Source of the DNA: a virus
Length of the DNA stretch: 64,000 nt
Strand: one strand, 5' to 3'
IMG/VR virus record: IMGVR_UViG_3300021420_000016
Span: 64,001-128,000 of that record
Under the pieces are notes generated by a model, which saw nothing but the letters and a program-made list of their open reading frames with translations, was not told the origin of the DNA and made no database searches. Each line of letters begins with the position of its first letter. Within the stretch, counting starts at the first letter, position 1. Below are positions 2,463-16,414 of the stretch, one piece after another. The position numbers and the translations under genes are program-made.

Positions 2463-3983
2463 ATGCCGACCGAGATGCGACTAGCCCAGCGGGCGTTCCG
2501 GTTCGCCCTCGACCCCACCCCCCGGCAAGCCCGCATGTTCGCCTCCCATGCTGGCGGCGCCCGGTTCGCCTACAACTGGGGTAACGCGCAGATCATCGCC
2601 GCACTGGACGCCCGGCAAGCCGAGAAAGATGCAGGTGCCGAGCCGACGGTGAAGACGCCGTCCCATTTTGACCTGTGCAAGGCGTGGACGGCGTGGAAGA
2701 ACGAGCACGCCGCCGATCCCGAGCCCGCCGACGGTGAGCGGCGCACGAACACCGCCTGGGTCGCGGAGAACTTCGTCGGCACCTACCAGGCCGCGCTCCG
2801 GGACGCCGCGAAGGCGTGGTCGGACTTCTTCGCCTCCCGCTCAGGGAAGCGAAAGGGGCGCCGTCTCGGCCGACCCCGGTTCAAGAAGAAGGGCAAGTCC
2901 CGGGACTCGTTCCAGGTGCACGGCGGGACGCTGCGCATGGAGGACGCCGTGCACGTGACGCTGCCGAAGATCGGCACGATCACGGTGATGTCGGACGATT
3001 CCCTGCACCCGGCGATGCGGCGCAGCCGCGCCCGCGCCACCCACCTCGCGCCGCGGCACATGGGCAACCGGCGGCGCGCCCGGACGCTGTGGCGGGCCCT
3101 CCGGCGCGGCGGGGGCGCCCGGCTGATCCGCGGGACCGTCACGCGCGGCGCCGATGGCCTGTGGTGGCTGTCGCTGACCGCCGAAATCCCCCTGCAGGTG
3201 CGCGCGTCCCCGTCCCGCGCCCAGCAGGAGGGGGGGATGATCGGCGCCGACTTTGGGGTGCGCGAGGTCGCCACGTTCTCCAACGGGGTGACGATCCGCA
3301 ACTCGCGCCACCTGGAAGCCGCCCTGGCCGAGCTGCGGGCCGCGCAGAAGGCCCTGTCCCGGTGTCAGAAGGACTCCATGCGCCGCGAAAAGGCCAAAGC
3401 TCGCATTGGCGTAATCCACGCCGACGTGGCCCGGCTCCGCGAAACCGCCCTGCACCGGGCGACGACCGTCCTGGTCCGCCAGCACGACGTGATCGCAATG
3501 GAAGGCTGGGACGTGCAGCAGGTCATGCGCGGCGGCTCCAAGGACGTCCCCCGGCGGATCCGCCGGGACCGGAACCGGGCCCTGGCTGACACCGGGGTCG
3601 GGATGGCCCGGCAGATGCTTTCGTACAAGGGCCCGCAGATGGGTGCCATCGTGATGGTGACCGATCCGCAGGCCAAGACTGGGCGGACGTGCTCAGTGTG
3701 CAGGACGCCAAGAACCACGGCCCTGCCACCGCATCATGAGATGTTCACCAGCGATCAGTGCGGTCACGTCCTAGACCGGCGCCTCAACACGGCGCAGGCC
3801 CTCGCGGGCTGGGCCGCACAGGAGCTATCCAAGCGCGGGCCGGCGCCTGCCGGCCCGTCACGGCCTCGTGGAGGGAACGTAAGGCCTGCCGCTGACCGCA
3901 AGGTTGGCGGTGGGCGGTCCCCGGTGAAGCGAGCAGCCAGCACCCGGCTTGGCCGGGGTGAGCCTGGCACTCCCGGCGGGTAA
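2463..3983 (+). CDS. tnpB: TnpB/Cas12-like RNA-guided protein, predicted nuclease-inactive
   Basis: N-terminal AFRFALDPTPRQ...GARFAYNW; RuvC-I GADFG (D263); RuvC-II AMEGW (E347); CSVC knuckle; RuvC-III DRRLN instead of DRDxN; RBS AAGGAGG. Confidence 0.9.
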   Translation: MPTEMRLAQRAFRFALDPTPRQARMFASHAGGARFAYNWGNAQIIAALDARQAEKDAGAEPTVKTPSHFDLCKAWTAWKNEHAADPEPADGERRTNTAWVAENFVGTYQAALRDAAKAWSDFFASRSGKRKGRRLGRPRFKKKGKSRDSFQVHGGTLRMEDAVHVTLPKIGTITVMSDDSLHPAMRRSRARATHLAPRHMGNRRRARTLWRALRRGGGARLIRGTVTRGADGLWWLSLTAEIPLQVRASPSRAQQEGGMIGADFGVREVATFSNGVTIRNSRHLEAALAELRAAQKALSRCQKDSMRREKAKARIGVIHADVARLRETALHRATTVLVRQHDVIAMEGWDVQQVMRGGSKDVPRRIRRDRNRALADTGVGMARQMLSYKGPQMGAIVMVTDPQAKTGRTCSVCRTPRTTALPPHHEMFTSDQCGHVLDRRLNTAQALAGWAAQELSKRGPAPAGPSRPRGGNVRPAADRKVGGGRSPVKRAASTRLGRGEPGTPGG

Positions 3984-4020
3984 CTGCTGGGCGTCCCCAC
4001 ACTGCCCGGATCGGGCTGCC
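3850..4020 (+). ncRNA. candidate omega-RNA-derived scaffold / tracrRNA
   Basis: CGTGGAG...GTAAG...hairpin...GTGAAGCG...hairpins overlapping the tnpB 3' end, as in actinobacterial tnpB right ends; repeat-complementary segment at 3992-4016. Confidence 0.55.
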
Positions 4021-4064
4021 TAACTCAATAGCGGAATCGCTTACAAACGTACAGGTCAAGAAGT
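4021..4064 (+). promoter_or_regulatory. CRISPR leader (actinobacterial type I-E style)
   Basis: AT-richer segment ending AAACGTACAGGTCAAGAAGT directly before repeat 1. Confidence 0.7.
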
Positions 4065-4527
4065 GTCCGGTCCGCGAGCGCGGGGGCGACGGGTCTTCAG
4101 CGGGAAGGTGCAGCTCTGCGAGCAGGTCCGGTCCGCGAGCGCGGGGGCGACGGGTGTGGGTACTCTGCGCGGGTTCAGCACAGGTTGTCCGGTTCGCGAG
4201 CGCGGGGGCGACGGGATTACGGTGCGATGGAAGCCGAAACCTTCAACGTCCGGTCCGCGAGCGCGGGGGCGACGGGTGCCCTCTCGCGACAGAGGTCCTC
4301 AGCACAGCGCGTCCGGTCCGCGAGCGCGGGGGCGACGGGGGAGTGCACCCGGAATGGCCCGCGCCAAGCGCGTCCGGTCCGCGAGCGCGGGGGCGACGGG
4401 GCGCCGAACTGCGAATTCGGTAGGGGCGTGTGGTCCGGTCCGCGAGCACGGGGGGGGCGACGGTGCCTCAGTCCAGCGCCGCCGCCGATGAAGCGGGCGG
4501 TCCGGTCCGCGGGCGCGGGGGATCCGG
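4065..4527 (+). CRISPR. CRISPR array, 8 repeats / 7 spacers, type I-E-like repeat GTCCGGTCCGCGAGCGCGGGGGCGACGG(G)
   Basis: Repeats start at 4065, 4126, 4187, 4248, 4311, 4372, 4433, 4500; mostly 61-nt period; distal repeats degenerate. Confidence 0.97.
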
Positions 4528-4571
4528 AACTTCTTGCCGATCCGGAACTTCATGTGGTTGGGTTGGTAGCC

Positions 4572-4901
4572 ATGCGCGGTGCGGAGCCGACCAAGCCGAT
4601 TGAATTAGCGCGGGTGGCCGACCAGCTCACCTTTCTCTACGTCGAGCACGCCCGGGTGGACCGCGACGTCAATGCCGTGACCGTTCAGCAGGTCTCCGGG
4701 ATCGCTCATGTTCCGGTGGCCACCCTCGCTGCGTTACTACTGGGCCCGGGAACCCGGATCACCCACGCCGCGATCACGCTGCTTGCCGGAAGCGGATGTA
4801 GCGTGCTGTGGGCCGGCGAACAAGGCGTGCGCCTTTATGCGGGTGCGGCTCGGCGTCGTCAAGGGCGGCGGGTCGGCGCTGATGGTGATCGCCGACCATG
4901 A
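4572..4901 (+). pseudogene. cas1: type I-E cas1, 5' third only
   Basis: LTFLYVEHARVDRD.NAVT...VPVATLAALLLGPGTRITHAA...LWAGEQGVRLYA; homology stops near 4845, so the catalytic domain is absent. Confidence 0.9.
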
Positions 4902-5043
4902 CCGTGAGCAGGGATTCACGGTACTAGCTGCAGGTGAGGACCGGTGGGTTCCCGTCGACTTCGAGGGACTGGCCCTGATGGTCCGGCCGGCCCGGAGCGG
5001 CGCTCCCCCGGCCGTTTCGGATGGCCCTATGCAAGTCCGATAA
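4845..5043 (+). pseudogene. cas2: type I-E cas2, 3' half
   Basis: GSALMVIA...REQGF...WVPVDFEGLALMVRP in a different frame, without its N-terminus. Confidence 0.8.
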
Positions 5044-5063: not shown

Positions 5064-5348
5064 ATGAGTAGCAGATCAGCAGGCCCCAGCGGCGCCTACA
5101 CATCTGGTGATGGCAAGCGGAAATCCTCCATGGGTCACGCCCGTCACGCCTGGACGTGCCCCTGTGGCAAGACCGTCCGGGGCAACGGCGGCCGGGCGTC
5201 TCACCGCCGCGCCTGCGACATCTGGGCTGAGGAAGAACTAGCCCGGCTGAAGCGAATGCTCGCCGATGTTCCAGCCGCACAGTATGAGGTGCGGCGTCAA
5301 TGGGAGGCCCGGCGAGACCACCTGAAGGAAAGGCTTGGCCATGACTGA
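5064..5348 (+). CDS. small putative Zn-binding protein
   Basis: CPCG...HRRAC; overlaps recombinase start. Confidence 0.5.
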   Translation: MSSRSAGPSGAYTSGDGKRKSSMGHARHAWTCPCGKTVRGNGGRASHRRACDIWAEEELARLKRMLADVPAAQYEVRRQWEARRDHLKERLGHD

Positions 5349-6516
5349 GATCGCCCTGCAGGGCCAAGTCGTCCCGGCCGTCACGCAGCCCGGGGATCCC
5401 CGCAGCGAACTCCTCGCCAGGCTCACCGCCGCCTGGCTGACCCGGCAGGAATCCCCTCACACCCGCGTAGCGTACGAGCGCGATCTCCGCGACTGGCTCG
5501 CCTGGTGCGCCAGCCGGGAGGTTCATCCGCTGACCGCACGCATGAGCGACGTGGACGACTGGATCGCCGCACAGCGGGAGACGCCGGGCCGGCGCGGAGG
5601 CTCGGCTCCCAAGTACCCCGACGAGGCCATAGCTGCCGCATACGTGCGCTGGAAGGCCGGTAAAGCCCCCGGCGGCGTGCCTGTCTCCAAGGCCGCGCTG
5701 GCCCGGGAAATTGGCATGTTCCCCAATGCGCTCGCCAGCAGGTTCAGGAAACTGGAGCGCGACCTCACCGCAGGGACTCCGCAGGGCGCGTCCAAGCGGA
5801 GCATCGCCCGGCGCGTTTACGCCGTCCGGTCCTGGTACAAGTACCTGATCCGGAACACCCGAAGCGACCCGGTGCCGCTCATCGCCTACAATCCGGCGGA
5901 CACCGACGCCACTCCCAAGGTGAAGAAAGGCGACTCCCCCACCCGTGCGCTCAGCCGGGCCGAGGCCGACCGGCTCATCGCGGTCGCCGACGCCGACAGT
6001 CCCCGGTCCTCGGCGATCATCCGCCTCATGCTCACCAACGCTGACCGCCGCAGTTCTGTCGTGGCCATCGACATCCCCGACCTCGGCTGGGACCAGGGTC
6101 ACCGGACCGTTACCAGGCGCATCAAGGAAGGCCGGACAGTCCGTGACCCCATCCCCCCGCCGACCGCTCGCGCCATTGACGCCTACCTTGACTGGCGGGG
6201 CAACCCGCAAGACGGTCCATTGTTCGTCGCCAGTACCGGGAATCGGCTTAGTGACCAGCATCTGTACGACCTCGTGCCCCGGCTGGCCCGGGAAGCAGAT
6301 ATCCCGGACCCGGAAGAGGTCACCCCACACGGTCTGCGCGCCACCGCCATCACCGAAACGATCGTCGCCACCGGCGACATGTCCCTAGCCCAGGATCTCG
6401 CCCACCATCAGCACATGGACACCACGATGATCTACAACAAAGTCCGGGGGGATCTCGACCGCCACGCAGCGTATGTCCTCGCCACGCGGTACGGCGCCAA
6501 AGACGCGAGCGGCTAA
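5341..6516 (+). CDS. tyrosine recombinase (Xer/integrase family) with inserted HTH-like segment
   Basis: SPHTRVAYERDL N-domain; NADRRS; TPHGLRATAIT; LAHH..MDTTMIY. Confidence 0.9.
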   Translation: MTEIALQGQVVPAVTQPGDPRSELLARLTAAWLTRQESPHTRVAYERDLRDWLAWCASREVHPLTARMSDVDDWIAAQRETPGRRGGSAPKYPDEAIAAAYVRWKAGKAPGGVPVSKAALAREIGMFPNALASRFRKLERDLTAGTPQGASKRSIARRVYAVRSWYKYLIRNTRSDPVPLIAYNPADTDATPKVKKGDSPTRALSRAEADRLIAVADADSPRSSAIIRLMLTNADRRSSVVAIDIPDLGWDQGHRTVTRRIKEGRTVRDPIPPPTARAIDAYLDWRGNPQDGPLFVASTGNRLSDQHLYDLVPRLAREADIPDPEEVTPHGLRATAITETIVATGDMSLAQDLAHHQHMDTTMIYNKVRGDLDRHAAYVLATRYGAKDASG

Positions 6517-6560: not shown

Positions 6561-6632
6561 GCGTAAAAGGGAAGGCGCGGCCGGGCACCCTCGGAGTGTG
6601 TCCGGCCGCGCCCGTTTCCCGCGTTTTTACGC
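6561..6632. terminator. long hairpin between convergent recombinase and TROVE genes
   Basis: GCGTAAAA..GGCGCGGCCGGGCAC / GTGTCCGGCCGCGCC..TTTTACGC. Confidence 0.6.
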
Positions 6633-8315
6633 GGCCCGTTCGGCCGATGGCAACAGCCACGGCCAGGTCGCGTCGTGTGAGGCCTCCAGAATGGGGATCA
6701 GGCGGAAGGCGTTGTCGGTAAGCCCGCCCATGGTGTGCCGGTTCCCGCCACCCGAAGGCAGTCCCCCAGTCTTGTACCCGCCGAAGTTCCACAGGTACAC
6801 CGGCACGTGCCGCGGGATCAGGTCATCAATCCTGGTCGACGGCATGCCGCCCGCGAAGTGACAGTTCGACGGCAGGTACCCCGGGGAGGTCTGCTCGTCG
6901 GTGACGATCACCACCCGGTCGTGGTAACCGGCGCGGAAATGCTGCCGCACCGCCGTGGGGATGTCGGTCCCCCACTGCCCCGTGGTGAGCCGCTCCACCA
7001 GCTTGAGCACCGACTCGCCCTGGGTGAACCGCACGGCGGCGTTCACGCCGCGGCCGGTGTCCTGGCCCCAGAACTCCACCAGGTCGGCGTGGGCGGCGCG
7101 CAGGGCGATGGCTGCGGCGAACACGGCCGCCCCGTCGGCCCAGGACATGTCGGAGTGCTCGGACATGTTCTGGTGCCACATCGACGGCGACCGGTCCACC
7201 AGCACCAGCGTGCGGCCCGCCAGCGCGGGCACGTTCGCCAGCGAGTGGCCGAGGCCCTGCTCCAGCGGCCAGCCCCACCGCAGCGACGGGGCGTGCCGGT
7301 AGGCGGCGAGGAACCGGAACGGGAACAGCCGCGACCTGGCCACCCGGTCGGGGTCAGCCAGTTTCGCCGCGACCTCCGCCGCCACCGAGTCCGGGACGCC
7401 GGCCTGGTCGAAGTTCCGCAGGTTCTTCGCCAGCGCGCCCAGGCCCATCATCGGGATCGCCGCAGTCCACGCCTCGCGGGTCATCGGGCCCTGCAGCCAC
7501 CCGGCGAGGGCCTCCCACGTCATCCCCGCATCACGCAGATCCTGAGTTGCCTCCGGCCGGTTCAGCCACGCACGCCGTGCACCCTCCGGCATGGCCATCA
7601 GGGCGTGCCGGCGGCGGATCGTCGCCAGCACCTCCGGGACCGGGTTGCCCCGGTCGTGGCGCCGCTCGATCGCATACCGGTAAAGTGCTTCGCGCCACGT
7701 GCCGTACGCCCTGCGGTGATACCGCGGGTTGACGAGTTCGATAACGTCACCGAATCGCACTGCCGCCTCGTCGGTGTCGTACTTCAGCAGGGCGAACTCG
7801 TTGTAGAGGCGGTGGATCCCGTCGGCGAGGCCCCGCTTGAGCCCGATCGGCATCTTCCGGCCGTAGTTCGCCAGCCAGTAGGCGGTCAGCTCCCCCGGCT
7901 CGTCGGCGCGCTGCAGCACCGAGTCCACCACCGGCCGCGGGAACGTGGCGACGCCCACTTCCCGGCCCGTGCCGGCCTCGTCGCGGCGCGCCCAGGTGAA
8001 CTCCGCCGCGCCGATCACCGGCGCCAGGCGCAGGTTCCCGTCGCCGCGCAGCCACCCGAGCAGGCCGGCCGTCCATGCGGGGTCGGCGGCCGCCATCTCG
8101 CGGACGAGGTGACGGTAGCGCTTCACCCGGGCGTCGCGGCCCTCGTGGAACGCCCTCTCCCCCGGCAGGTTGCACGCCGCCAGGAGGAACAACTCGGACT
8201 GACCCTCGCGGGCATACCCGGGGGCACCCAAGGCGGTACGGCCGGACGGCCCCGGGCCGCTCACGACCGGGCTGGACGCGGCGGCACGGACAGGACCGCG
8301 GTTGAACTTGCTCAT
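6627..8315 (-). CDS. rsr: Ro60/Rsr-like TROVE + vWA RNA-binding protein
   Basis: VLQRADEPGE, MTWEAL, KNLRNFDQAG, SRLFPFRFLAAY; MIDAS VDRSPSM and IVTDEQ; start at MSKFN with upstream RBS. Confidence 0.92.
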   Translation of the reverse strand: MSKFNRGPVRAAASSPVVSGPGPSGRTALGAPGYAREGQSELFLLAACNLPGERAFHEGRDARVKRYRHLVREMAAADPAWTAGLLGWLRGDGNLRLAPVIGAAEFTWARRDEAGTGREVGVATFPRPVVDSVLQRADEPGELTAYWLANYGRKMPIGLKRGLADGIHRLYNEFALLKYDTDEAAVRFGDVIELVNPRYHRRAYGTWREALYRYAIERRHDRGNPVPEVLATIRRRHALMAMPEGARRAWLNRPEATQDLRDAGMTWEALAGWLQGPMTREAWTAAIPMMGLGALAKNLRNFDQAGVPDSVAAEVAAKLADPDRVARSRLFPFRFLAAYRHAPSLRWGWPLEQGLGHSLANVPALAGRTLVLVDRSPSMWHQNMSEHSDMSWADGAAVFAAAIALRAAHADLVEFWGQDTGRGVNAAVRFTQGESVLKLVERLTTGQWGTDIPTAVRQHFRAGYHDRVVIVTDEQTSPGYLPSNCHFAGGMPSTRIDDLIPRHVPVYLWNFGGYKTGGLPSGGGNRHTMGGLTDNAFRLIPILEASHDATWPWLLPSAERAA

Positions 8316-8358
8316 CCTCGCACGCCCCCTTTCGCTGGGGCTCCAGGCGGGAGAGGTA

Positions 8359-8524
8359 ACCTTCATGAATGACATGCCCGACAACGAATCGGCCCACGGG
8401 ACATAAGCGCTCTGCCAGTTGAGCTACGCCCCCAAAGTGGAGGCGACAGGACTTGAACCTGTAACCACTCGATCCACAATCGAAGTACCGCGAACCTGCA
8501 CTTCGGGCATGCCTTCATGAAGTT
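8359..8524 (-). ncRNA. Y RNA 1 (YrlA-like, permuted tRNA-like domain)
   Basis: CCCGAAGTGCAGG...GCCGATTCGTTGTCGGG closing stem; internal order T-arm, closed acceptor-like hairpin, D-arm. Confidence 0.85.
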
Positions 8525-8529
8525 GTACC

Positions 8530-8672
8530 CCCCCCCGACAACGAATCGGCGACGGTAACCGGGGCCGGATTCGAACCGGCGGCCTCCGCCCTTCCGGGCG
8601 GCGCTCTACCAACTGAGCTACCTCGCAAAATGGGTTGGCTGCGAGAAGTAACCGTTGCCTGCACTTCGGGGA
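8530..8672 (-). ncRNA. Y RNA 2 (D-arm, GGAA-capped arm, T-arm)
   Basis: Same terminal motifs; TAGCTCAGTTGGTAGAGC, CCGCCC-GGAA-GGGCGG, GGTTCGAATCC. Confidence 0.8.
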
Positions 8673-8697
8673 GAAGTGCTTTATTTAGTTTATGTCC

Positions 8698-8806
8698 TTC
8701 CCGACAACGGATCGGCGGCGGCTGCGCGGGATTCGAACCCGCAACCTTCAGCTACTGTGACTGATTTCGATCCAATTCGAAGTAGCCGTCTCCTGCACTT
8801 CGGGAA
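8698..8806 (-). ncRNA. Y RNA 3 (T-arm only)
   Basis: Same terminal motifs plus TACTTCG; GCGGGTTCGAATCCCGC. Confidence 0.78.
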
Positions 8807-8889
8807 AGTATTCCCAGAGCCTAGCGAACCGGCAATGCGTGGCGCATCCCGTTTTCGCGTGACCCTGATCACAGCGCGAGCACCCTTTG

Positions 8890-8961
8890 AGTCGGCGGCG
8901 GGAATTGAACCCGCGTGCGCAGCTTTGCAGGCTGCTACCTCTGCCACTCGGCCACGCCGAC
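8890..8961 (-). tRNA. tRNA-Cys(GCA)
   Basis: cloverleaf, loop CT-GCA-AA. Confidence 0.92.
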
Positions 8962-8963
8962 AC

Positions 8964-9039
8964 GGTGAGCGAGGCGGGATTCGAACCCGCAGCCTTCTTC
9001 TTAGGAGGAAGTTGCTCCATCCCGTTGAGCTACCCGCTC
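8964..9039 (-). tRNA. tRNA-Arg(CCT)
   Basis: loop CT-CCT-AA. Confidence 0.9.
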
Positions 9040-9108
9040 GCGGGAACGCCTGGCGACCGCTATGCGTGATCCTTTACCCCCACCGTTTGAAGCTGGGTCC
9101 AGGCGTTC

Positions 9109-9182
9109 GGCGTCCCCGGCGTGACTCGAACACGCGCGCACGGCTCCGGAGGCCACAGCTCTATCCACTGAGCTACGGGGAC
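9109..9182 (-). tRNA. tRNA-Arg(CCG)
   Basis: loop CT-CCG-GA. Confidence 0.9.
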
Positions 9183-9183
9183 T

Positions 9184-9268
9184 TGGTGGCAGGTCCAGGG
9201 TTCGAACCTGGGTAGGCTGAGCCGGCGGTTTTACAGACCGCTCCCTTTGGCCGCTCGGGCAACCTGCC
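9184..9268 (-). tRNA. tRNA-Tyr(GTA)
   Basis: loop CT-GTA-AA, long variable arm, CCA. Confidence 0.95.
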
Positions 9269-9269
9269 T

Positions 9270-9347
9270 TGGGGAGCCCGGCCGGATTTGAACCGGCGAC
9301 GACACGGACCACAACCGTGTGTTCTGCCTGGCTGAACTACAGGCTCC
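9270..9347 (-). tRNA. tRNA-His(GTG)
   Basis: loop TT-GTG-GT, G-1, CCA. Confidence 0.93.
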
Positions 9348-9348
9348 A

Positions 9349-9423
9349 TGGTGGGTGATGATGGGATCGAACCATCGGCCTCTGTCGTGTGAAGGCAGCG
9401 CTCTGCCACTGAGCTAAACACCC
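9349..9423 (-). tRNA. tRNA-Val(CAC)
   Basis: loop TT-CAC-AC, CCA. Confidence 0.9.
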
Positions 9424-9511
9424 CTGCCAGGTCTTGATTTAAGTTCCGGGAATGCTTATTGTTTCCTTGCTACTAAAACCCTTAGCAAGTAGCACGGAAA
9501 GGGACACCTCA

Positions 9512-9655
9512 ATGGGCAGGAACAAAATCGTTGCAACTTGCGCCGCAATCTTTTTCGCGGCCGGGATGGCCGCCCCGGTTATCGCCGCAGCCACACCCGC
9601 CGTGCACGCCGTGGCAGACGGCAGTGGCGGCCCCGACATGTACCACCACAGCTGA
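9512..9655 (+). CDS. 47-aa secreted peptide precursor
   Basis: RBS GGAAAGGGA; signal-peptide-like N-terminus, short polar tail GSGGPDMYHHS. Confidence 0.65.
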   Translation: MGRNKIVATCAAIFFAAGMAAPVIAAATPAVHAVADGSGGPDMYHHS

Positions 9656-9716
9656 CCGTCCCCCAGGCCGTCTGCGGTCCCGAGCCCCCGGCGGGGCCGC
9701 AGACCCCTAAAATAAG

Positions 9717-9789
9717 TGCGCTCGGAGGGACTCGAACCCCCAACAAACTGCTCCGTAGGCAGTTGCTCTATCCGTTGAGCTACGGGCGC
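9717..9789 (-). tRNA. tRNA-Arg(ACG)
   Basis: loop CT-ACG-GA. Confidence 0.93.
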
Positions 9790-9800
9790 ATGGTATCGCG

Positions 9801-9873
9801 TGGGCGTACCTGGGATCGAACCAGGGATCCTCTGCCGTGTCGAGACAGCGCTCTGCCGCTGAGCTACACGCCC
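9801..9873 (-). tRNA. tRNA-Val(GAC), C33
   Basis: loop TC-GAC-AC. Confidence 0.88.
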
Positions 9874-10382
9874 ACCGTTACTTCCAGGCCAATCTCGGCG
9901 GCCTGCCCAGCGATCTTCTCCGGCAGTTCCCAGCCGAGCCGGGCCAGCCGCTGCACTGCCTGCCGGGCACCATTCCCGGCCCGGCCCGCTAGGTTCACGT
10001 TCTCCAGTGCCTCGTTCATCATGTCCTCCATCCCCCGGTCGGTCACCATGAACGGAATCACGTTGAACAGCACGACCGCCGCCGCAGCGCCGGTGAGAGT
10101 CCACCGGCCGGTGGATGGCTGGACGCCGATCTCGCAATGGATATGCGCCTCGCCGCAATGCTCGGCGCAGCCCCGCTTGTCCCACTCCTTGCCCGGACGG
10201 GGAGGCCGCGGCTCCGCGTTGCTGTCGGTGAGCCGGCACAACTCCCTGATCACGCTCAGGTAAGAAGAGTCGACCCGCAGCACCAGTTGCGGCGTCGCCC
10301 GGGTGAGGTTGTCCTTCCGGTGGATGCGGCCCTGCATGTCCAAGATGGCCGCCATCCAGGCCAGCTTCTCGGCAGGGACCAT
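9864..10382 (-). CDS. LAGLIDADG-like homing endonuclease-related protein (degenerate motif)
   Basis: LAWMAAILDMQGRI...LVLRV...VIRELCRL. Confidence 0.55.
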   Translation of the reverse strand: MVPAEKLAWMAAILDMQGRIHRKDNLTRATPQLVLRVDSSYLSVIRELCRLTDSNAEPRPPRPGKEWDKRGCAEHCGEAHIHCEIGVQPSTGRWTLTGAAAAVVLFNVIPFMVTDRGMEDMMNEALENVNLAGRAGNGARQAVQRLARLGWELPEKIAGQAAEIGLEVTVGV

Positions 10383-10408
10383 AAACCTCAGCCTAGCGCC
10401 GTGATACG

Positions 10409-10483
10409 CGGGACAGGCGGGATTCGAACCCGCGGCCTCCACCTTGACAGGGTGGCGAGCACTCCTGACTGCTCCACAGTCCC
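10409..10483 (-). tRNA. tRNA-Asp(GTC)
   Basis: loop CT-GTC-AA. Confidence 0.93.
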
Positions 10484-10598
10484 ATGATTCCGGTCGCGGC
10501 CCCGCAGGCTATCGCGCCTCACCTGCGGTCAGCGGACGGCGAACCCGCCTATGTTTGCCCACCGGAACTGCACCAGCCAGATGCAGGTGTTGGAAAAC

Positions 10599-10673
10599 GG
10601 CTCCCGAGGAAGGGCTCGAACCTTCAACCTGCCGGTTAACAGCCGGACGCTCTGCCGATTGAGCTACCCGGGA
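10599..10673 (-). tRNA. tRNA-Asn(GTT)
   Basis: loop CT-GTT-AA. Confidence 0.93.
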
Positions 10674-10814
10674 ATGAGAAAGAAGCCCCGCCTACACGGA
10701 GCGCCCCGACGGCACTCCCGCCCTTATGCTGCCGTCGCAGCCCCATGGGCACTTGGTCCGCGGCCCGCGCGCCCTGCCTTCGGGTCAAGCCCGTACATCC
10801 TCAGCGGAACTTCG

Positions 10815-10888
10815 TAGCGGGGGGCGGATTTGAACCGCCGTCCTCTGGGTTATGAGCCCAGCGAGCTACCGAACTGCTCCACCCCGCG
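10815..10888 (-). tRNA. tRNA-fMet(CAT)
   Basis: 5' CGCGGGG, C1 unpaired, GGG/CCC anticodon stem. Confidence 0.92.
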
Positions 10889-10976
10889 TCGCATGTGAGA
10901 TTTCCCGGCCACCTGGCCAACTCAGGTACCCACAACGGCCTCTCTACGGCTGACACTGATCACGCTACCACATTCG

Positions 10977-11052
10977 TGGTGGCTCCAGTCAGATTCGAAC
11001 TGACGCCGTCTCCTTGAAAGGGAGGTGACCTGGGCCGCTAGTCGATGGAGTC
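10977..11052 (-). tRNA. tRNA-Glu(TTC)
   Basis: loop CT-TTC-AA, CCA. Confidence 0.88.
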
Positions 11053-11053
11053 G

Positions 11054-11126
11054 TATCCCGGGAGGGATTCGAACCCCCGCCGCCACCTTGAGAGAGTGGC
11101 ATCCTAGGCCGCTAGACGACCGGGAC
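11054..11126 (-). tRNA. tRNA-Glu(CTC)
   Basis: loop CT-CTC-AA. Confidence 0.92.
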
Positions 11127-11138
11127 ATGTACTTTACG

Positions 11139-11211
11139 TGCGCCGCCGCGGACTCGAACCGCGAGCCGTCTCCTTAGAGGGGAGCCGCTCTATCCATTGA
11201 GCTAGCGGCGC
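11139..11211 (-). tRNA. tRNA-Arg(TCT), C33
   Basis: loop CC-TCT-AA, A20 in D-loop. Confidence 0.85.
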
Positions 11212-11371
11212 TGGCCGCGTCTCCGATTTCCCGGCGGACGGCTTGCTTCTCGCGTGCACGCTGAGCGCGCCGGCCGATCTCCTTCATACCGGGCTTGTAA
11301 CCCGGGTCGTGACCGGGGCAGCACCAATTCTGGTCGTGGGCACTGCGGGCCCGGCCGAGCATCCTTGCCAT
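11174..11371 (-). CDS. small basic Cys-containing protein, similar to N-terminus of 55181..55636
   Basis: MARMLGR..CC..RRAQRAREK vs MAKMLGR..CRC..RRARKRAEA; upstream GGAGG. Confidence 0.5.
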   Translation of the reverse strand: MARMLGRARSAHDQNWCCPGHDPGYKPGMKEIGRRAQRAREKQAVRREIGDAASAASSMDRAAPL

Positions 11372-11394
11372 GGGGCGCATCCTCCGGTTAGGGG

Positions 11395-11895
11395 CTATGC
11401 CGCTTCGCGCAGAGTGCGCATTCCGCGAGTGCCAGGCGTCTCACCCCGGCGAACCCGGCCATCGTATTTGGCTTGGCGGCATAGACCGCAGCGGCATCCG
11501 CGACCGTATTCCGCTTGAGAACCGTGGCCCTTTCGCTGAAGTTGCGGCCACGGGCGTTCGACACGCTGCTCGGCTAGGTCAGTGACCGTTTTCCGGTGAT
11601 GATGCGCGCCACATAGAACTTGGCACCCTTCAAGCTCCTCAAGGAACTTCACTTCTGCGATCGACCATAGTCTCGCTAGGTCGATCTCTTTGGCGCGCCA
11701 ATCAATGTGGTCGATCTCCAGGTCGGCGGTGCCGCCGCACTCGGCACAGGCGCCGCCTAGCAGCGCGATGGCTCGATCCCGTCGTTCGTGGTAGCGCCGG
11801 AGCATGTAATCGCGCATGTAGCCGTTGTAGCAGTCGCGACATCTCTTGCCGTTGGCATACTCCCTGACGGGCCTGCCGCACTGGTTGCAACACAT
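11395..11895 (-). CDS. HNH endonuclease
   Basis: CAECG..LEIDHID...CQVLCGAHH; TATAAT 6 nt before ATG (leaderless). Confidence 0.88.
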   Translation of the reverse strand: MCCNQCGRPVREYANGKRCRDCYNGYMRDYMLRRYHERRDRAIALLGGACAECGGTADLEIDHIDWRAKEIDLARLWSIAEVKFLEELEGCQVLCGAHHHRKTVTDLAEQRVERPWPQLQRKGHGSQAEYGRGCRCGLCRQAKYDGRVRRGETPGTRGMRTLREAA

Positions 11896-11910
11896 GTTCG
11901 AATTATATGC

Positions 11911-11986
11911 GGTGCCCCGCCTCGGATTCGAACCGAGAACCCGCGGATTAAAAGTCCGCTGCTCTAAGCCGTTGAGCTAGCAGGGC
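11911..11986 (-). tRNA. tRNA-Lys(TTT)
   Basis: loop CT-TTT-AA. Confidence 0.93.
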
Positions 11987-12043
11987 GTGGGGCTGGGTAT
12001 TCGTACGACCTGTTTCTCGCGCATCGTTTCCTCCTTTCCGGGG

Positions 12044-12120
12044 GGTAGGCCGGGCGGGGGTCGAACCCGCACATCTTCCGCTTATAAGGCGGCTGCCGTC
12101 ACCCTGTTGGCCACCGGCCT
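12044..12120 (-). tRNA. tRNA-Ile(TAT)
   Basis: loop CT-TAT-AA, discriminator A. Confidence 0.85.
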
Positions 12121-12126
12121 CCTGAG

Positions 12127-12198
12127 TAGCGAGAGGGGATTCTGCCACCCCGGCCTCTCCGTTATGGGCGGAGCGCTCTCCTTCTGAGCTATCCCGCT
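12127..12198 (-). tRNA. tRNA(CAT) Met/Ile2, C33, aberrant T-loop
   Basis: loop CC-CAT-AA; T-arm GGGGTGGCAGAATCCCC lacks TTC. Confidence 0.7.
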
Positions 12199-12213
12199 GG
12201 GTCCCCGTGGGGG

Positions 12214-12289
12214 TGGTGGGCCTAGGTGCTTTTGGGACACCGACCTCCCGGTTATCAGCCGGACGCTCTTACCTCTGAGCTACAGGCCC
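12214..12289 (-). tRNA. tRNA-Ile(GAT), aberrant T-loop
   Basis: loop CT-GAT-AA; T-arm GGTGTCCCAAAAGCACC; CCA. Confidence 0.75.
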
Positions 12290-12290
12290 T

Positions 12291-12382
12291 TGGAGGAGGG
12301 TGCGAGATTCGAACTCGCGAGACGAGTCCCCCCGTCTAGCCGTTTTCGAGACGGTGCCGTAGGCCACTCCGGTCAACCCTCC
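12291..12382 (-). tRNA. tRNA-Ser(CGA)
   Basis: loop CT-CGA-AA, long variable arm, CCA. Confidence 0.88.
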
Positions 12383-12387
12383 ACAAG

Positions 12388-12476
12388 CGGAGTGACAAGG
12401 ATTCGAACCTTGGAGGGGCTTGCGCCCCAACGGCGTTAGCAGCGCCGCGCCATAGGCCAGACTAGGCGACCACCCC
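12388..12476 (-). tRNA. tRNA-Ser(GCT)
   Basis: loop CT-GCT-AA, long variable arm. Confidence 0.92.
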
Positions 12477-12554
12477 ATTGTGCGGTGGGCGGGGACAGGC
12501 GGACCCGCTGGTACGCGCAGACCAGCATGGCCGTGATCTCCCCGCCTCACTGCG

Positions 12555-12630
12555 TAGCGCTCGTCGGATTCGAACCGACACTGTCGCGGACCTGAACCGC
12601 GCGCCTCCTACCATGTTGGGCTAGAGCGCC
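12555..12630 (-). tRNA. tRNA-Leu(CAG), short variable region
   Basis: loop TT-CAG-GT. Confidence 0.85.
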
Positions 12631-12735
12631 TGGCCAGGGATCAGGCCGGTGCCGTCTGGCTCACGCTGCCTTCCCGGCACCGCCGGCTCCGCAGTCAGCG
12701 TGATGGGGATAACCGTGTGGCGCCTGATCCCTTAG

Positions 12736-12808
12736 AGCGGACGGCCGGGATCGAACCGGCGACTTCAACCTTGGCAAGGTTGCGCTCTGCCAACTGAGCC
12801 ACGCCCGC
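12736..12808 (-). tRNA. tRNA-Gly(GCC)
   Basis: loop TT-GCC-AA. Confidence 0.95.
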
Positions 12809-12818
12809 ATGTATTTCG

Positions 12819-12890
12819 AGCGGAAGACGGGGATCGAACCCGCAACCCCGACCTTGGGAAGGTCGTGCTCTGCCATTGAGCCACTTCCGC
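12819..12890 (-). tRNA. tRNA-Gly(CCC)
   Basis: loop TT-CCC-AA. Confidence 0.94.
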
Positions 12891-12891
12891 A

Positions 12892-12967
12892 TGGAGCCCG
12901 ACCGGGGAATTGAACCCCGCCTACGGCCTTACCAAGGCCGGGTGCTTACCGCTATCACTAGCCGGGC
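12892..12967 (-). tRNA. tRNA-Thr(GGT)
   Basis: loop TT-GGT-AA, CCA. Confidence 0.9.
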
Positions 12968-12971
12968 GAAG

Positions 12972-13042
12972 CTGGGGGAGCTGGGGTCGAACCAACGTTC
13001 CAGGGACCAAAGCCCCGTGTCCTGCCTTTAGACGATCCCCCA
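12972..13042 (-). tRNA. tRNA-Gln(TTG)
   Basis: loop CT-TTG-GT. Confidence 0.9.
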
Positions 13043-13043
13043 T

Positions 13044-13121
13044 TGGAGCCGGCCATCGGGCTTGAACCGATCACCTGCCGCTTACAGGGCGGCTGCTCTG
13101 CCTGCGATGAGCTAGGCCGGC
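13044..13121 (-). tRNA. tRNA-Thr(TGT), C33
   Basis: loop CC-TGT-AA, CCA. Confidence 0.88.
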
Positions 13122-13187
13122 GTGATCCTGGCAGGCACCGCAGGCGACCTTTGGCGCCGCAGTGAGGCCTGCCCTGCCAAGGAATCG

Positions 13188-13262
13188 TGTGCTCGGAGGG
13201 ACTTGAACCCTCAACATCCGGCACCTCGGGCCGACCTCTCTGCCACATTGGAGTACGAGCAC
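13188..13262 (-). tRNA. tRNA-Leu(GAG), C33, short variable region
   Basis: loop CC-GAG-GT. Confidence 0.85.
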
Positions 13263-13335
13263 TCAGTCAGTTCTTAGGCCAGCCGTATGGTGGGTATGAC
13301 TCATCCCAACGATACCGATCGCAGGGAGCGCCCCC

Positions 13336-13572
13336 GTGGATGAGCCCAATCTCACTCTCCCCGAAGCCCAGGAGCAACTACCGGCGATCTGCCAGCGGTT
13401 CGCTGCCGACCCAGGAACCCGGGATGCCGTTGTAGTGACAGACGCCGATGGCCCAGTGGCCGTGATCATCCCCTGGCGGAGGTACCGGGCCTGGGCCGGC
13501 CTCGGGGGGGAGACCCTGATGCCCGTTCACCAAAACGGCCGCCTGATAGCGGTTGTCCGGGACTGCGGCTGA
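13336..13572 (+). CDS. Phd/YefM-like orphan antitoxin-fold protein
   Basis: LTLPEAQEQLPAIC...AVVVT..GPVAVIIP. Confidence 0.5.
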   Translation: MDEPNLTLPEAQEQLPAICQRFAADPGTRDAVVVTDADGPVAVIIPWRRYRAWAGLGGETLMPVHQNGRLIAVVRDCG

Positions 13573-13575
13573 CTG

Positions 13576-13650
13576 GGAGCCCGATGCCGGGGTCGAACCG
13601 GCGACCTCCGCGGTACGAAGGCGGCGCTCTACCGACTGAGCTAACCGGGC
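13576..13650 (-). tRNA. tRNA-Thr(CGT)
   Basis: loop TT-CGT-AC, C31-C39 mismatch. Confidence 0.85.
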
Positions 13651-13802
13651 GTGGCTGCCCCGCGTACGCCGGTTCGGCGGGGCGCACCAGGGCGGGAGAA
13701 TCCGGGGCCGTGCGATCAGCCGCCCAAGATCGCCTCGATCTTCCATGTTCCCGGTGATCAACTCCGGGTGGGCCCCTGCGCCAGTGCCGGCCAGTTACCT
13801 TC

Positions 13803-14477
13803 TTAGGGATTCCTGGCCGCTGATGCAACCGGCGCTGCTCCCGGAGCTGGGGTCGAACCAACTACGGGACTTACCGCTTCCGGGGCTGGACTCGAACCAG
13901 CGAGGACAGGGGCCAGAACCCTGCTGGGGACGCCGCCGCCCCACCCGGAATCAAGTCGGCCCGAACGGATAGCCGTACGGATCCGATGACAATTAGCGCA
14001 AACTATGTCACACTTCGCGATCTCAGCAAGGATTCTGCTCCATGACCAGCGGGTAAGCACGGCACTTATGTTGCCCAGCTTGTCATCCCCATCCCTGTGG
14101 TCGTAATCCATAACACAAGGGGGGAACCGGCCACCGCAATCAGCGCACGGGACGTCTTTCAATGCGTCGAGTCGCTGCCGGTTCGCCTCGTATCGTTGCC
14201 GGTTGCGGTCCAGATATACCTGCTTGTTGTCGTTGTACCACCGTTGCTTCGCCGCCCGCTGTGCTTCTTTGTTACGGCCGGCACCGGTCCCTTTCTTCCA
14301 CCGGACCCCGAGAAAATGTGAAGTATCCAGGCCCAGCTCTGCGGCTACCGCCCTGATTCTGTGGTATGAACTACCTCCGTCAGCCTTAAGTCCAAGCGCT
14401 CGGGCTACCTGGCCCCAAGTCGTGGATTGAGTGATGGCATCAGCTAGATCGCCGTCGGACCATGACCTGGTTCTCAT
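13803..14477 (-). CDS. HNH endonuclease inserted in tRNA-Gln
   Basis: PCADCG...MDYDHRD...KCDIVCANCHRIRT; TATACT 7 nt before ATG. Confidence 0.88.
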   Translation of the reverse strand: MRTRSWSDGDLADAITQSTTWGQVARALGLKADGGSSYHRIRAVAAELGLDTSHFLGVRWKKGTGAGRNKEAQRAAKQRWYNDNKQVYLDRNRQRYEANRQRLDALKDVPCADCGGRFPPCVMDYDHRDGDDKLGNISAVLTRWSWSRILAEIAKCDIVCANCHRIRTAIRSGRLDSGWGGGVPSRVLAPVLAGSSPAPEAVSPVVGSTPAPGAAPVASAARNP

Positions 14478-14561
14478 GCCTGCCAGTATACGGCAAGGTG
14501 TAGGGCTCTAGTCGCTTCGTCTGATCCAGAGTCAGGTGTCCTGCCATTGGACGATCCGGGA
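13838..14561 (-). pseudogene. split tRNA-Gln(CTG): 5' part 14520-14561, 3' part 13838-13866
   Basis: TCCCGGA acceptor strand pairs with TCCGGGA about 650 bp downstream; halves join into a complete cloverleaf. Confidence 0.8.
13877..13950 (-). tRNA. tRNA-Gln(CTG), atypical D-arm, inside the HNH insertion
   Basis: TTCCGGG/CCCGGAA acceptor, loop TT-CTG-GC, GGTTCGAGTCC. Confidence 0.7.
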
Positions 14562-14565
14562 TTAG

Positions 14566-14647
14566 TGCGGGACGAGGGATTTGAACCCTCACGCCCTCTC
14601 GGGCACACGGACTTGAGCCGTGCGTGTCTGCGTTTCACCAGCCCCGC
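14566..14647 (-). tRNA. tRNA-Leu(CAA)
   Basis: loop CT-CAA-GT, long variable arm. Confidence 0.9.
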
Positions 14648-14653
14648 TGGCCT

Positions 14654-15442
14654 TCAAAACGCCTTCCGCATTTCCTCGATCAGGGCCAGCGATTGCGGCG
14701 CGTTCAGGGCTATGCTTTGCAGCCAATCCGCTTGCGCGCGGAACCGGTCCAGGTCTGCGGTGTGGTCCTGGTACCTGTCTTCTCTCTCGGAGAAGACCAT
14801 CGGGGGCAGTTCGCCGGCGAAATCCAGGATCGTGAAGTTCGGCGCCGGGGAGGAGATCAGCGCCGCGCGGAACGGGACTACCCGCACGATGGCGCCTTCG
14901 CCGGCAAGGTTCAGGATGTGCCCGAGCTGGTCGGCCATGATGTCGGCGCCGGGGTGGCGCTGCAGGACCGCCTCATCCAGGAGGAACGTTGTGGGGATCT
15001 TCCCCACCAGTACCTGCCGGGCTTCACGCACCTGCGGGTACGGCCGGCCGGCGGCCTGGTCGTAGTTTGCGGTGCGCAGCAGCGCGGGGATTACGTCGCG
15101 GGCGAGGCAGACGAGGGACTCGGCGTTTTGCTCCAGGCTGAGGTACAGGACCGACCGGTCGTTGCTGATCGGCTCTATCCTCCACGGGTCTTTCTCCCGG
15201 CCGCGTCTCACGGCGGCAAGGAGCTCCGCCGCGGTGGCCTGGTCGGCGCCGTAGACGAGGCACATGGAGCGGACTGTGCGCCCGTCGGCGAGCCGGTCGC
15301 CGGTTTCGGTGCGGCTGACCGTGGCCATGGAGCACAGCAGTTCGGCTGCGGCCTGCTCGATCGTCATGCCCGCTGCGGTGCGCAGTTCGCGCAGGCGGGC
15401 GGCGAGTTTCATCTGGGCTACGGCGGGGCTGTCACTTGCCAT
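14654..15442 (-). CDS. XRE HTH + DUF5753-type regulator
   Basis: LAARLRELRTAAGMTIEQAA..SMATVSRTETG; IPALLRTANY; LDEAVL. Confidence 0.82.
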   Translation of the reverse strand: MASDSPAVAQMKLAARLRELRTAAGMTIEQAAAELLCSMATVSRTETGDRLADGRTVRSMCLVYGADQATAAELLAAVRRGREKDPWRIEPISNDRSVLYLSLEQNAESLVCLARDVIPALLRTANYDQAAGRPYPQVREARQVLVGKIPTTFLLDEAVLQRHPGADIMADQLGHILNLAGEGAIVRVVPFRAALISSPAPNFTILDFAGELPPMVFSEREDRYQDHTADLDRFRAQADWLQSIALNAPQSLALIEEMRKAF

Positions 15443-15487
15443 GTGGCACATATACCCTGCACCGGGCATTTTGCACGTAACCTATCG

Positions 15488-15559
15488 TGCGCCGCCAGGG
15501 GATCGAACCCCGGACCCGCCGATTAAGAGTCGGCTGCTCTACCACTGAGCTAGCAGCGC
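15488..15559 (-). tRNA. tRNA-Lys(CTT)
   Basis: loop CT-CTT-AA. Confidence 0.95.
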
Positions 15560-15560
15560 C

Positions 15561-15634
15561 TGGAGCGGGTGAAGGGGATCGAACCCTCATGACCAGCTTG
15601 GAGGGCTGGGGCTCTGCCATTGAGCTACGCCCGC
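15561..15634 (-). tRNA. tRNA-Gly(TCC), C33
   Basis: loop CC-TCC-AA, CCA. Confidence 0.9.
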
Positions 15635-15643
15635 ATTGACTTT

Positions 15644-15720
15644 TGGTGGCCACTCTCCGAGTCGAACGGAGGCCCTCTCACTTTTCAGGCGAGCGCTCAT
15701 ACCAACTGAGCTAAGCGGCC
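15644..15720 (-). tRNA. tRNA-Phe(GAA)
   Basis: loop CT-GAA-AA, CCA. Confidence 0.92.
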
Positions 15721-15724
15721 ATAG

Positions 15725-15796
15725 TCGGGATGGTCCGAACCGAACGGACGCCCTTCTGCTCCCAAAGCAGACGCTCTTCCACTGAGCTACACCCCG
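15725..15796 (-). tRNA. tRNA-Pro(TGG)
   Basis: loop TT-TGG-GA. Confidence 0.88.
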
Positions 15797-15801
15797 AATC
15801 G

Positions 15802-15876
15802 TCGGGACAGACCGATTTGAACGGCCGGCCTCCGGCTCCCCGAGCCGGCGCTCTAACCAAGCTGAGCTATGCCCCG
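15802..15876 (-). tRNA. tRNA-Pro(GGG), C33
   Basis: loop TC-GGG-GA. Confidence 0.88.
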
Positions 15877-16062
15877 GTTACGCCACGTGTTTCCAGGTGC
15901 GCCCACACCGAATATCGCTGATCGTGGCCTTGTGAACTCCCAGCAGTTTGGCAAGGGCAATCCCCCGACGCATGAGCCGTTCGCGGCCAGCCACTTGGCT
16001 CTCCTGGCAGCGACCCACTCCCGCATGTACTTTCGCTGCCGCTCAGGATCGGCATAAGGCAT
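15853..16062 (-). pseudogene. HNH endonuclease N-terminal remnant
   Basis: MPYADPERQRKYMREWVAARRAKWL..GSCV resembles the start of 11395..11895; no HNH core. Confidence 0.55.
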
Positions 16063-16104
16063 GCGAACGGTATATCGCAGTTAGCCCTTTGACCTGTACT
16101 CTTG

Positions 16105-16182
16105 TGGTCGGGATGGGGTGATTCGAACACCCGGCCTCCTCGTCCCGAACGAGGCGCGCTGACCAAGCTGCGCCACATCCCG
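16105..16182 (-). tRNA. tRNA-Pro(CGG)
   Basis: loop TT-CGG-GA, CCA. Confidence 0.94.
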
Positions 16183-16414
16183 TTTGCCGGTTCCCTCCCA
16201 GGGCGTGCCGCCAGTGCAGGCAGAGAACGTTCCGTCCCCTTGCCGGAAAGAGGGACCCAGGCCCCTCGCGCGTCCGGGCGGGGAGACTTCCCCGGGGGCG
16301 GACTGTGATGCGCATTGCACGGCGGTCCCTGGTTGCCGGATCAGCCCTCCGCAGTTTGCTGTGTGGTACGTCACTTCTGCGAGCGATATCCGGCCCGGCT
16401 AGCGGGGACCGTAG

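Follow-up and report, generated by a model that had tools for sequence, protein, structure and literature searches.

A Cas12n-like, array-associated effector with an Asp-to-Arg replacement in RuvC-III in a viral genome

Results

Organization of the locus

The DNA analysed here (the window) is a stretch of 64,000 nucleotides, bases 64001-128000 of the 154,048-bp IMG/VR virus record IMGVR_UViG_3300021420_000016. The record is rated 98% complete and represents a large, probably temperate soil actinophage; no near-identical phage relative was obtained in a GenBank search. The subject of this report is a gene of the window that encodes a Cas12n-like effector, together with the guide-RNA scaffold, the CRISPR array, and the adaptation-gene remnants that accompany it (Table 1). 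The array begins 81 nt past the stop codon of the effector gene. The whole cassette seems to occupy an integration or accessory region of temperate elements.

Table 1. Features of the effector module in the window. Arg clade and Asp-type denote relatives of the effector with Arg-Arg-x-Asn and with the canonical DRD at RuvC-III, respectively.
Feature	Position	Strand	Basis or remark
Effector gene, 506 aa, Cas12n-like, TnpB-derived	2463..3983	+	Pfam HTH_OrfB_IS605, OrfB_IS605 (RuvC), and Cas12f1-like TNB
RuvC-I Asp D263, kept	3249..3251	+	Asp in 135/135 Arg-clade and 88/88 Asp-type sequences
RuvC-II Glu E347 (3501-3503), kept; next residue G348; motif EGW, not ED-	3501..3506	+	
TNB region	3690..3764	+	CSVC (410-413) kept; E426 (3738-3740); FTSDQCG (428-434) minus one zinc Cys
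RuvC-III motif DRRLNTA; R440 (CGC, 3780-3782) at the catalytic Asp position	3774..3794	+	
Conserved structured RNA (tracrRNA/omega-RNA-like scaffold), ORF tail to first repeat; 5' limit provisional	3783..4063	+	Covariation
Hairpin across the stop codon (TAA, 3981-3983)	3972..3991	+	Helix 6: 99% of cells paired, both-side changes in 6/8 pairs
Anti-repeat CGUCCCC, pairs with GGGGGCG = repeat positions 18-24 (4082-4088 in repeat 1)	3992..3998	+	Helix 7
Conserved leader end, ...CAGGTCAAGAAG, abutting repeat 1	4020..4064	+	Most related loci have AAG directly ahead of repeat 1
CRISPR array, 8 repeats of 29 nt (type I-E-like), 61-nt period, 7 spacers of 32-36 nt	4065..4528	+	
cas1 N-terminal remnant, ~91 codons	4566..4838	+	61.5% identical to residues 1-91 of full-length L044 Cas1; weak Pfam Cas_Cas1 match
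Type I-E cas2 C-terminal remnant, frame differs from that of the cas1 piece	4864..4977	+	Pfam Cas_Cas2CT1978, 27.2 bits, profile 50-86 of 86
Tyrosine integrase (context)	5335..6516	+	Directly after the CRISPR module

Family assignment of the effector

The closest solved structure by sequence was RdCas12n (9J09, E 9e-36), and ISDra2 TnpB was matched with an E value of 1.8e-22. An AlphaFold2 model of the effector, built from 100 sequences, had a pLDDT score of 89.2 and a predicted template modelling (pTM) score of 0.83. Its fold matched those of TnpB and Cas12f, with a target-normalised TM-score of ~0.8 for ISDra2 and IS607-type TnpB. Approximately 460 residues were structured, the TNB region being modelled with a pLDDT of >90, and residues 462-506 formed a disordered tail (pLDDT <50).

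Cas12n is characterised by a miniature effector with an unstructured C-terminal tail whose DNA encodes the trans-activating CRISPR RNA (tracrRNA), an anti-repeat near the end of the open reading frame (ORF), a downstream array, and an AAN protospacer-adjacent motif (PAM) (PMC12216341; PMC11641405; bioRxiv 10.64898/2026.03.27.714800). The phage effector is like Cas12n in its size, which equals the 506 aa listed for AcCas12n (PMC11641405), in its actinobacterial setting, in the disordered C-terminal tail with the tracrRNA in its coding DNA, in the anti-repeat just past the ORF, and in the array lying downstream on the same strand. In addition, the sole protospacer found for its clade has an AAG PAM, which is the preference of AcCas12n (PMC12216341). 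On the other hand, Cas12n has a D-E-D triad (D287, E386, and D484 in RdCas12n) and cleaves dsDNA, whereas the phage effector has Arg in RuvC-III and Glu in the TNB and has lost the zinc finger. The Arg clade, to which the phage effector belongs, also forms a branch of its own, with 31-40% identity to the Asp-type Cas12n-like proteins. The identity of the effector as a Cas12n-like protein (type V-N, formerly V-U4/C2c9) is well supported. An earlier note on this DNA had named TldR and Cas12m as precedents; of the known families, Cas12n, and not TldR, stands nearest.

The phage effector lacks HHDVK, the PAM motif of AcCas12n-like proteins (PMC12216341), and has SFQVHG in its place. Because HHDVK was seen only in relatives outside the Arg clade, namely three Asp-type proteins (P0141 and P0146 among them), one His-type protein, and one fragment, the characterised nuclease AcCas12n most likely lies outside this clade.

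Replacement of the catalytic Asp of RuvC-III

Translation of the ORF confirmed what the earlier note had read from it, that is, the retention of D263 and E347 together with the altered motifs DRRLNTA, EGW, and FTSDQCG. The R440 codon is two changes away from GAC. In the HMMER alignment to solved chains, 'LDRRLNTA' was placed on 'HDRDENAA' of ISDra2 TnpB and on 'MDRDLNAA' of RdCas12n, with R440 facing the second Asp of 'DRD' in both proteins. The aligned Asp is catalytic (D361 in ISDra2 TnpB, PMC10097598; D484 in RdCas12n, PMC12216341), and the proposed assignment of R440 to the catalytic position was thus borne out. The zinc motif reads CSVC...SDQC, and the effector has neither the intact D-E-D triad nor the CCCC zinc finger of Cas12n.

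Position 426, which lies in the TNB domain (limits as in PMC10097598) four residues before the second zinc knuckle, aligned with R347 of ISDra2 TnpB. The RuvC pocket of Cas12f holds the Nuc/TNB arginine R490, which faces the acidic triad, and cleavage depends on this residue (PMC8053092). Judging from its place relative to the motif, position 426 may be equivalent to R490.

Fixation of the Asp-to-Arg change in a clade

D263, E347, R439, R440, and N442 were invariant in 25/25 aligned homologs, down to 50% identity. The 255 nearest proteins, drawn from two large searches, were aligned. Arg-Arg-x-Asn occupied RuvC-III in 135 of the 255 proteins, all of which retained D263 and E347, and the canonical DRD was present in 88 more distant ones. 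In a column-by-column comparison of these two groups, position 348 was Gly in 131/135 members of the Arg clade, compared with Asp in 76/88 Asp-type proteins. E381 of the Asp-type proteins was changed to M or I in the Arg clade, which in turn gained the invariant lid residues P363, R367, R370, and N371. Position 426 was Arg in 78/88 Asp-type proteins and Glu or Asp in 94% of the Arg clade. An acidic residue at 426 occurred with Arg at 440 in 127 sequences and Arg or Lys at 426 with Asp at 440 in 79, mixed states being few. R440 and E426 represent a reciprocal Asp/Arg swap between RuvC-III and the TNB.

The phylogeny was inferred with FastTree, using Shimodaira-Hasegawa (SH)-like support. The Arg clade was monophyletic with 100% support, and a subclade without the zinc cysteines, which includes the phage effector, was nested inside it with 99% support. 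The sister relation between the Arg clade and the Asp-type Cas12n-like proteins had a node support of just 4. The two closest homologs for which DNA was available, L002 (85% identity) and L004 (82% identity), are both located in other gene neighbourhoods. Compared with these two, the ratio of nonsynonymous to synonymous divergence (dN/dS) of the effector was 0.15-0.20 overall and 0.12-0.18 over RuvC plus TNB. The change from Asp to Arg is maintained by selection across the whole clade and does not represent decay. The earlier note had named decay of this one copy, with Asp kept in all homologs, as one outcome that would overturn its proposal; the substitution is not private to the copy, and this check came out in favour of the proposal. 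The clade was present in 2/401 genomes of one family sample and in 0/~400 other genomes of the same class, and was seen mostly in soil metagenomes and viral contigs, being rare in reference genomes.

Other replacements of the RuvC-III Asp (Gly, Ser, His, Thr, and Glu) were observed in the Cas12n-like proteins P0136, P0140, P0147, and P0180 and at locus L051, most of which lie outside the Arg clade; an array persists at L051, which reads RLRTLNSA. Several losses of the catalytic Asp appear to have occurred in this part of the tree. Within the zinc-less subclade, P0008, P0010-P0015, P0022, P0024, P0032, and P0035 (620-890 aa) have 150-300 aa of helical sequence inserted at the arginine-rich WED insertion (MSDDSLHPAM...RHMGNRRR), which is equivalent to residues 176-218 of the window effector. 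In some of these long zinc-less members, the REC region contains a further, Cys-rich insert. The R/K-rich 'extra-WED' of RdCas12n occupies a place comparable to that of the helical insertion.

Guide-RNA scaffold and its pairing with the repeat

For 12 loci, the stretch that starts 200 nt upstream of the stop codon and includes the first repeat was aligned and analysed with RNAalifold. The alignment was strongly conserved, including its non-coding part, and RNAalifold returned a multi-helix scaffold with a hairpin across the stop codon and a 7-bp anti-repeat:repeat helix. Pairing was found in 94.8% of the cells, compared with 37-48% for slid partners. Furthermore, 19 pairs showed compensatory (both-side) changes, compared with ≤5 in the slid controls, and 0/500 shuffles reached the observed values. 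In the anti-repeat helix, 98.8% of the cells were paired and 4/7 pairs were compensated (in L004, L045, L048, L006, and L018). The synonymous divergence (dS) in the tail codons of the effector was 0.36-0.46, compared with 0.65-0.80 elsewhere. This fits an overlapping RNA, since reduced synonymous divergence is expected where an RNA overlaps the tail. A single 151-nt contig from a soil metatranscriptome spans exactly 3881-4031; DNA carry-over could account for it, and the uncovered parts are uninformative. An RNAduplex scan for the anti-repeat gave strong but inconsistent duplexes in this GC-rich DNA and was replaced by the alignment and covariation analysis.

Linkage of the array to the effector

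The array is real, and has the seven spacers from which the earlier note had counted up to seven targets; however, repeats 7 and 8 are degenerate, and only 6 spacers have an intact repeat upstream. Among the Arg-clade loci with enough downstream sequence, 13/16 had a same-strand array with a 61-nt period, located 60-215 nt downstream of the effector gene. The repeats of these arrays were related but distinct, the leader end ...CAGGTCAGGAAG was conserved, and the gene contexts were unrelated. Arrays were likewise present at the Asp-type Cas12n-like loci L009-L011 and L023 (Kocuria). Because the linkage is conserved and the scaffold anti-repeat covaries with the repeat, the array is the effector's own. 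It is well supported that the effector is CRISPR-programmed, as had been proposed for it; the RNA programming, like the family identity, was shown computationally. Orphan effectors of the Arg clade were also seen in two IMG/VR contigs of 37 kb and 160 kb (L007 and L008), in L020 (Jiangella anatolica), and in L043, for all of which no array was detected within the downstream sequence covered.

It is very improbable that the gene is an ordinary or decaying IS607/IS605 TnpB that lies beside an array by chance, even though Pfam and NCBIfam name it TnpB and databases label its relatives 'transposase' or 'RNA-guided endonuclease TnpB'. In NCBIfam, the effector falls in the generic 'guided_TnpB' subfamily, and its IS607_TnpB score of 257 bits is below the cut-off of 350. 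The gene is present in one copy in the 154-kb phage and in one copy in each of 5 bacterial genomes. The gene has no neighbouring tnpA, and Pfam gave no match for the ORF upstream. The effector shares the fold, the domain order, and a guide-RNA scaffold overlapping the 3' end of the gene with ISDra2 and IS607-type TnpB, but differs from them in its single copy, the lack of tnpA and of transposon ends, its array-borne guides, and the replaced catalytic Asp. Copy number, the absence of tnpA, the conserved array linkage, purifying selection, and the clade-wide fixation of Arg thus contradict a transposon TnpB.

Adaptation-gene remnants and origin of the module

The type I-E features of the array and adaptation genes comprise a 29-nt hairpin repeat, 32-nt spacers, cas1 and cas2 remnants, and an AAG PAM whose G continues the repeat. 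No Cas6e, Cas7e, or Cascade genes were found in the phage. The Arg-clade locus L044, whose effector has an intact zinc finger, carries 15 repeats and a full-length Cas1 after the array. L002 carries the same cas1/cas2 stubs as the window. DNA contigs of relatives part from the window sequence at 4847/4850, which marks a deletion junction. Mobile elements thus acquired a complete effector-array-cas1-cas2 locus, in which the effector and its RNA were kept and the adaptation genes decayed. Since cas1-cas2, which a bacterial relative has beside its module, are here reduced to stubs, the array is frozen, with 6 of its 7 spacers preceded by an intact repeat.

With regard to the gene order of related loci, effector-array-integrase also occurs in L004, and the integrase lies upstream in L002. 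A 167-nt contig of run X10, a '454' marine metatranscriptome of 2011, was identical to 4450-4616 (array end to cas1 stub). For a soil phage the marine label is unexpected; mislabelling or contamination may be the cause.

Spacers and their targets

The whole array gave only chance-level matches (E ≥0.5) in a blastn search against 50,697 GenBank phages. For the 7 spacers, blastn-short gave only 16-nt chance matches, both in the 154-kb phage genome itself and in all the retrieved loci, and exact 20-mers of spacers 1-3 were absent from IMG/VR. Similarly, 81 spacers from 17 related arrays had no cross-matches to all loci and the phage, the L044 and L021 arrays had no match in GenBank phages, and a self-target search in the bacterial genomes for the L018, L019, and L023 arrays returned only the array itself.

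A target was found for the array of L021, which lies in the genome of Streptosporangium violaceochromogenes JCM 3281 (G001). Spacer 5 of this array matched 32/32 bases at positions 784-815 of contig C42 of the same assembly, with 5'-AAG before the match; the G of this AAG continues the repeat, as in I-E acquisition. The protospacer is located 24 nt into a 61-aa zinc-ribbon ORF, and the spacer corresponds to the sense strand. Among the products of the 36-kb contig C42 are a phage major capsid protein (E 2e-48), a protein resembling HK97 gp10, and a member of a PHROG family. This match shows that clade spacers come from phages. The 5'-AAN PAM is represented by this one clade protospacer, and by none from the phage's own spacers.

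Spacers differed completely between effectors 82-85% identical. No spacers are common to close relatives, and therefore a fixed TldR-like regulatory guide is disfavoured; the turnover of spacers argues against it. The variable spacers and the phage-like match point to contests between mobile elements, and not to a fixed regulatory role.

The array might instead serve the host, as an I-E-style mini-array used by the host Cascade-Cas3 against competing phages, with the TnpB-like gene as a linked passenger. The lengths of repeats and spacers, the hairpin, the AAG PAM, and the cas1/cas2 remnants are all of I-E style, the phage itself lacks both Cas6e and Cas7e, and Streptosporangium G001 has two separate I-E loci. 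Nevertheless, this is unlikely, since the anti-repeat in the effector scaffold covaries with the repeat across loci, the effector-array linkage outlasts changes of context while cas1/cas2 decay, no other array with the L021 repeat was found in G001, and the effector is under purifying selection. The array may be used by both the effector and a host system.

Discussion

DNA binding or DNA cutting

Our leading reading, to which we assign a probability of about one half, is a Cas12n-like phage module whose effector binds DNA without cutting it. The scaffold anti-repeat would pair with the array repeats, and six or seven spacers would provide the guides. The effector ribonucleoprotein would then find targets that lie next to AAG in rival phages or other mobile elements, and would block them by binding, acting as a roadblock to transcription or replication like Cas12m, without canonical double-strand cleavage. 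The RuvC pocket of the clade was remodelled by the changes of the RuvC-III Asp to Arg and of the TNB Arg to Glu/Asp, the loss of two nearby acids, and the gain of lid arginines, followed by the loss of the zinc finger in a subclade. We infer a loss of DNA cutting from the active-site residues: a metal-ligand Asp is replaced by Arg in 135/135 clade members, D348 and E381 are lost and R367 and R370 are gained in the pocket, and the zinc finger is gone in the subclade. Fewer acids on balance, more arginines, and the zinc finger's later disappearance all favour a loss of cutting. In addition, the coexistence of Streptosporangium with a perfect, PAM-flanked target fits non-lethal targeting.

Several points weigh against this reading. 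D263 and E347 are invariant down to 45% identity, which favours some retained chemistry, and the Glu or Asp at 426 could relocate the third carboxylate and keep the nuclease active. Conserved RuvC-III alterations usually mean retained activity according to Altae-Tran et al. 2023 (PMC10691335). The Streptosporangium self-target is a single example, for which an anti-CRISPR, lack of expression of the locus, or free phage in the culture would be other explanations. The phage's seven spacers yielded no target in GenBank phages, in its own genome, in the retrieved loci, or, for spacers 1-3, in IMG/VR, and the RNA-library contig is a weak hint of scaffold expression.

Two readings of the swap itself can be given. 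One is a compensating salt bridge, by which the TNB would stay docked on a pocket without the second metal, giving a binder; the other is a relocation of the third carboxylate, giving a rearranged nuclease. In the latter case, the third carboxylate would have moved from 440 to E426 and the Arg to 440, so that Asp, Glu, an acidic residue, and Arg would all be present in the pocket, and the protein would still cut DNA, or at least process its own RNA, as an ordinary interference nuclease. We consider this possible but less probable than binding without cutting. It is consistent with the 127 and 79 reciprocal state pairs and the rarity of mixed ones, the 100% conservation of D263 and E347, the role of R490 in the Cas12f pocket (PMC8053092), the reading of conserved RuvC-III alterations in other TnpB branches as active (PMC10691335), and the immune-system-like diversity of the spacers and their match to a phage. 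On the other hand, the equivalence of 426 to R490 is suggested by motif position, and the swap is essentially one evolutionary event, for which co-occurrence is not statistical proof of coupling. Two more nearby acids are lost, a subclade has no zinc finger, and one cultured strain tolerates a fully matching self-target with its PAM. The earlier note had proposed a silencer rather than a nuclease; the Arg on which it relied is indeed clade-wide and selected, but the Glu/Asp at 426 may fill the acidic site, which the note had listed among the outcomes that would refute it.

A fuller version of binding without cutting can be put forward somewhat more tentatively. The Arg clade may be a natural 'dCas12n', a V-N branch of Actinobacteria and their phages in which the swap ended cutting and the fold was kept. 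Guided binding would silence rival or resident phages, for example by holding off a prophage gene in Streptosporangium, and for actinophages the effector, tracrRNA, and mini-array would be a portable weapon, acquired for use against competing phages.

Relation to known systems

Cas12m (type V-M, formerly V-U1) needs no tracrRNA, and its RuvC is kept for the processing of CRISPR RNA. It resembles the phage effector as a small, TnpB-derived, CRISPR-associated effector of Actinobacteria. Cas12m protects by DNA binding and not by cutting (PMC11013384), and the inactivation of RuvC in type V-M was gradual (PMC10691335). It is a functional precedent for the proposed mechanism and not a close relative; no Cas12m chain was among the PDB sequence matches at E 0.01, and Foldseek placed Cas12m2 25th.

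TldRs are guided to a host promoter (fliC, oppF) by one fixed omega-RNA and lack a CRISPR array. The phage module differs from them in its variable array, its tracrRNA, its adaptation-gene remnants, and its spacers that turn over, and the searches described above gave no host target for it. TldR is best regarded as a functional analogy and not as the family of the phage effector, although both are TnpB-derived, with an altered RuvC, and TldRs are often phage-encoded, RNA-guided DNA binders (bioRxiv 10.1101/2023.11.30.569447).

The phage is also comparable to viruses with mini-arrays or CRISPR-Cas systems of their own in having a short array and no adaptation genes. Such systems, known from huge phages, ICP1, and the mini-arrays of archaeal viruses, carry short arrays that are presumably directed against competitors. 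The present module differs from them in having its own miniature effector and tracrRNA and an altered nuclease site.

The findings that are new here are the covariation of the tracrRNA, the Arg/Glu swap, the adaptation-gene remnants, and the prophage-matching spacer. If the effector binds without cutting, it would be the second independent natural binding-only miniature Cas12, after Cas12m, and its ~460 structured residues and AAG PAM would suit compact scaffolds for CRISPR interference or base editors in high-GC hosts. If it still cuts, it would represent a new design of the RuvC site, in which the third carboxylate comes from the TNB domain. Either way, this is a Cas12 lineage whose arrays and adaptation genes are of type I-E style, and large actinophages carry a self-contained effector-tracrRNA-array cassette. 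The cultured Streptosporangium that tolerates a perfect match is a ready system for distinguishing silencing from cutting.

Other features of the window

The minus strand at 8556-16918 carries 36 tRNA-type genes (Rfam), which is typical of large actinophages. These include a tRNA-Sec match at 12295-12382, which lies right at the threshold (47.2 bits versus 47). A 585-aa TROVE-domain (Ro60/Rsr-like) protein is encoded on the minus strand at 6627-8384. Just upstream of the start of this gene, at 8369-8813, there are three repeat units located ~160 nt apart and interleaved with tRNA-like elements. These units may be Y-RNA-like (YrlA-type) partners of the Ro60 homolog.

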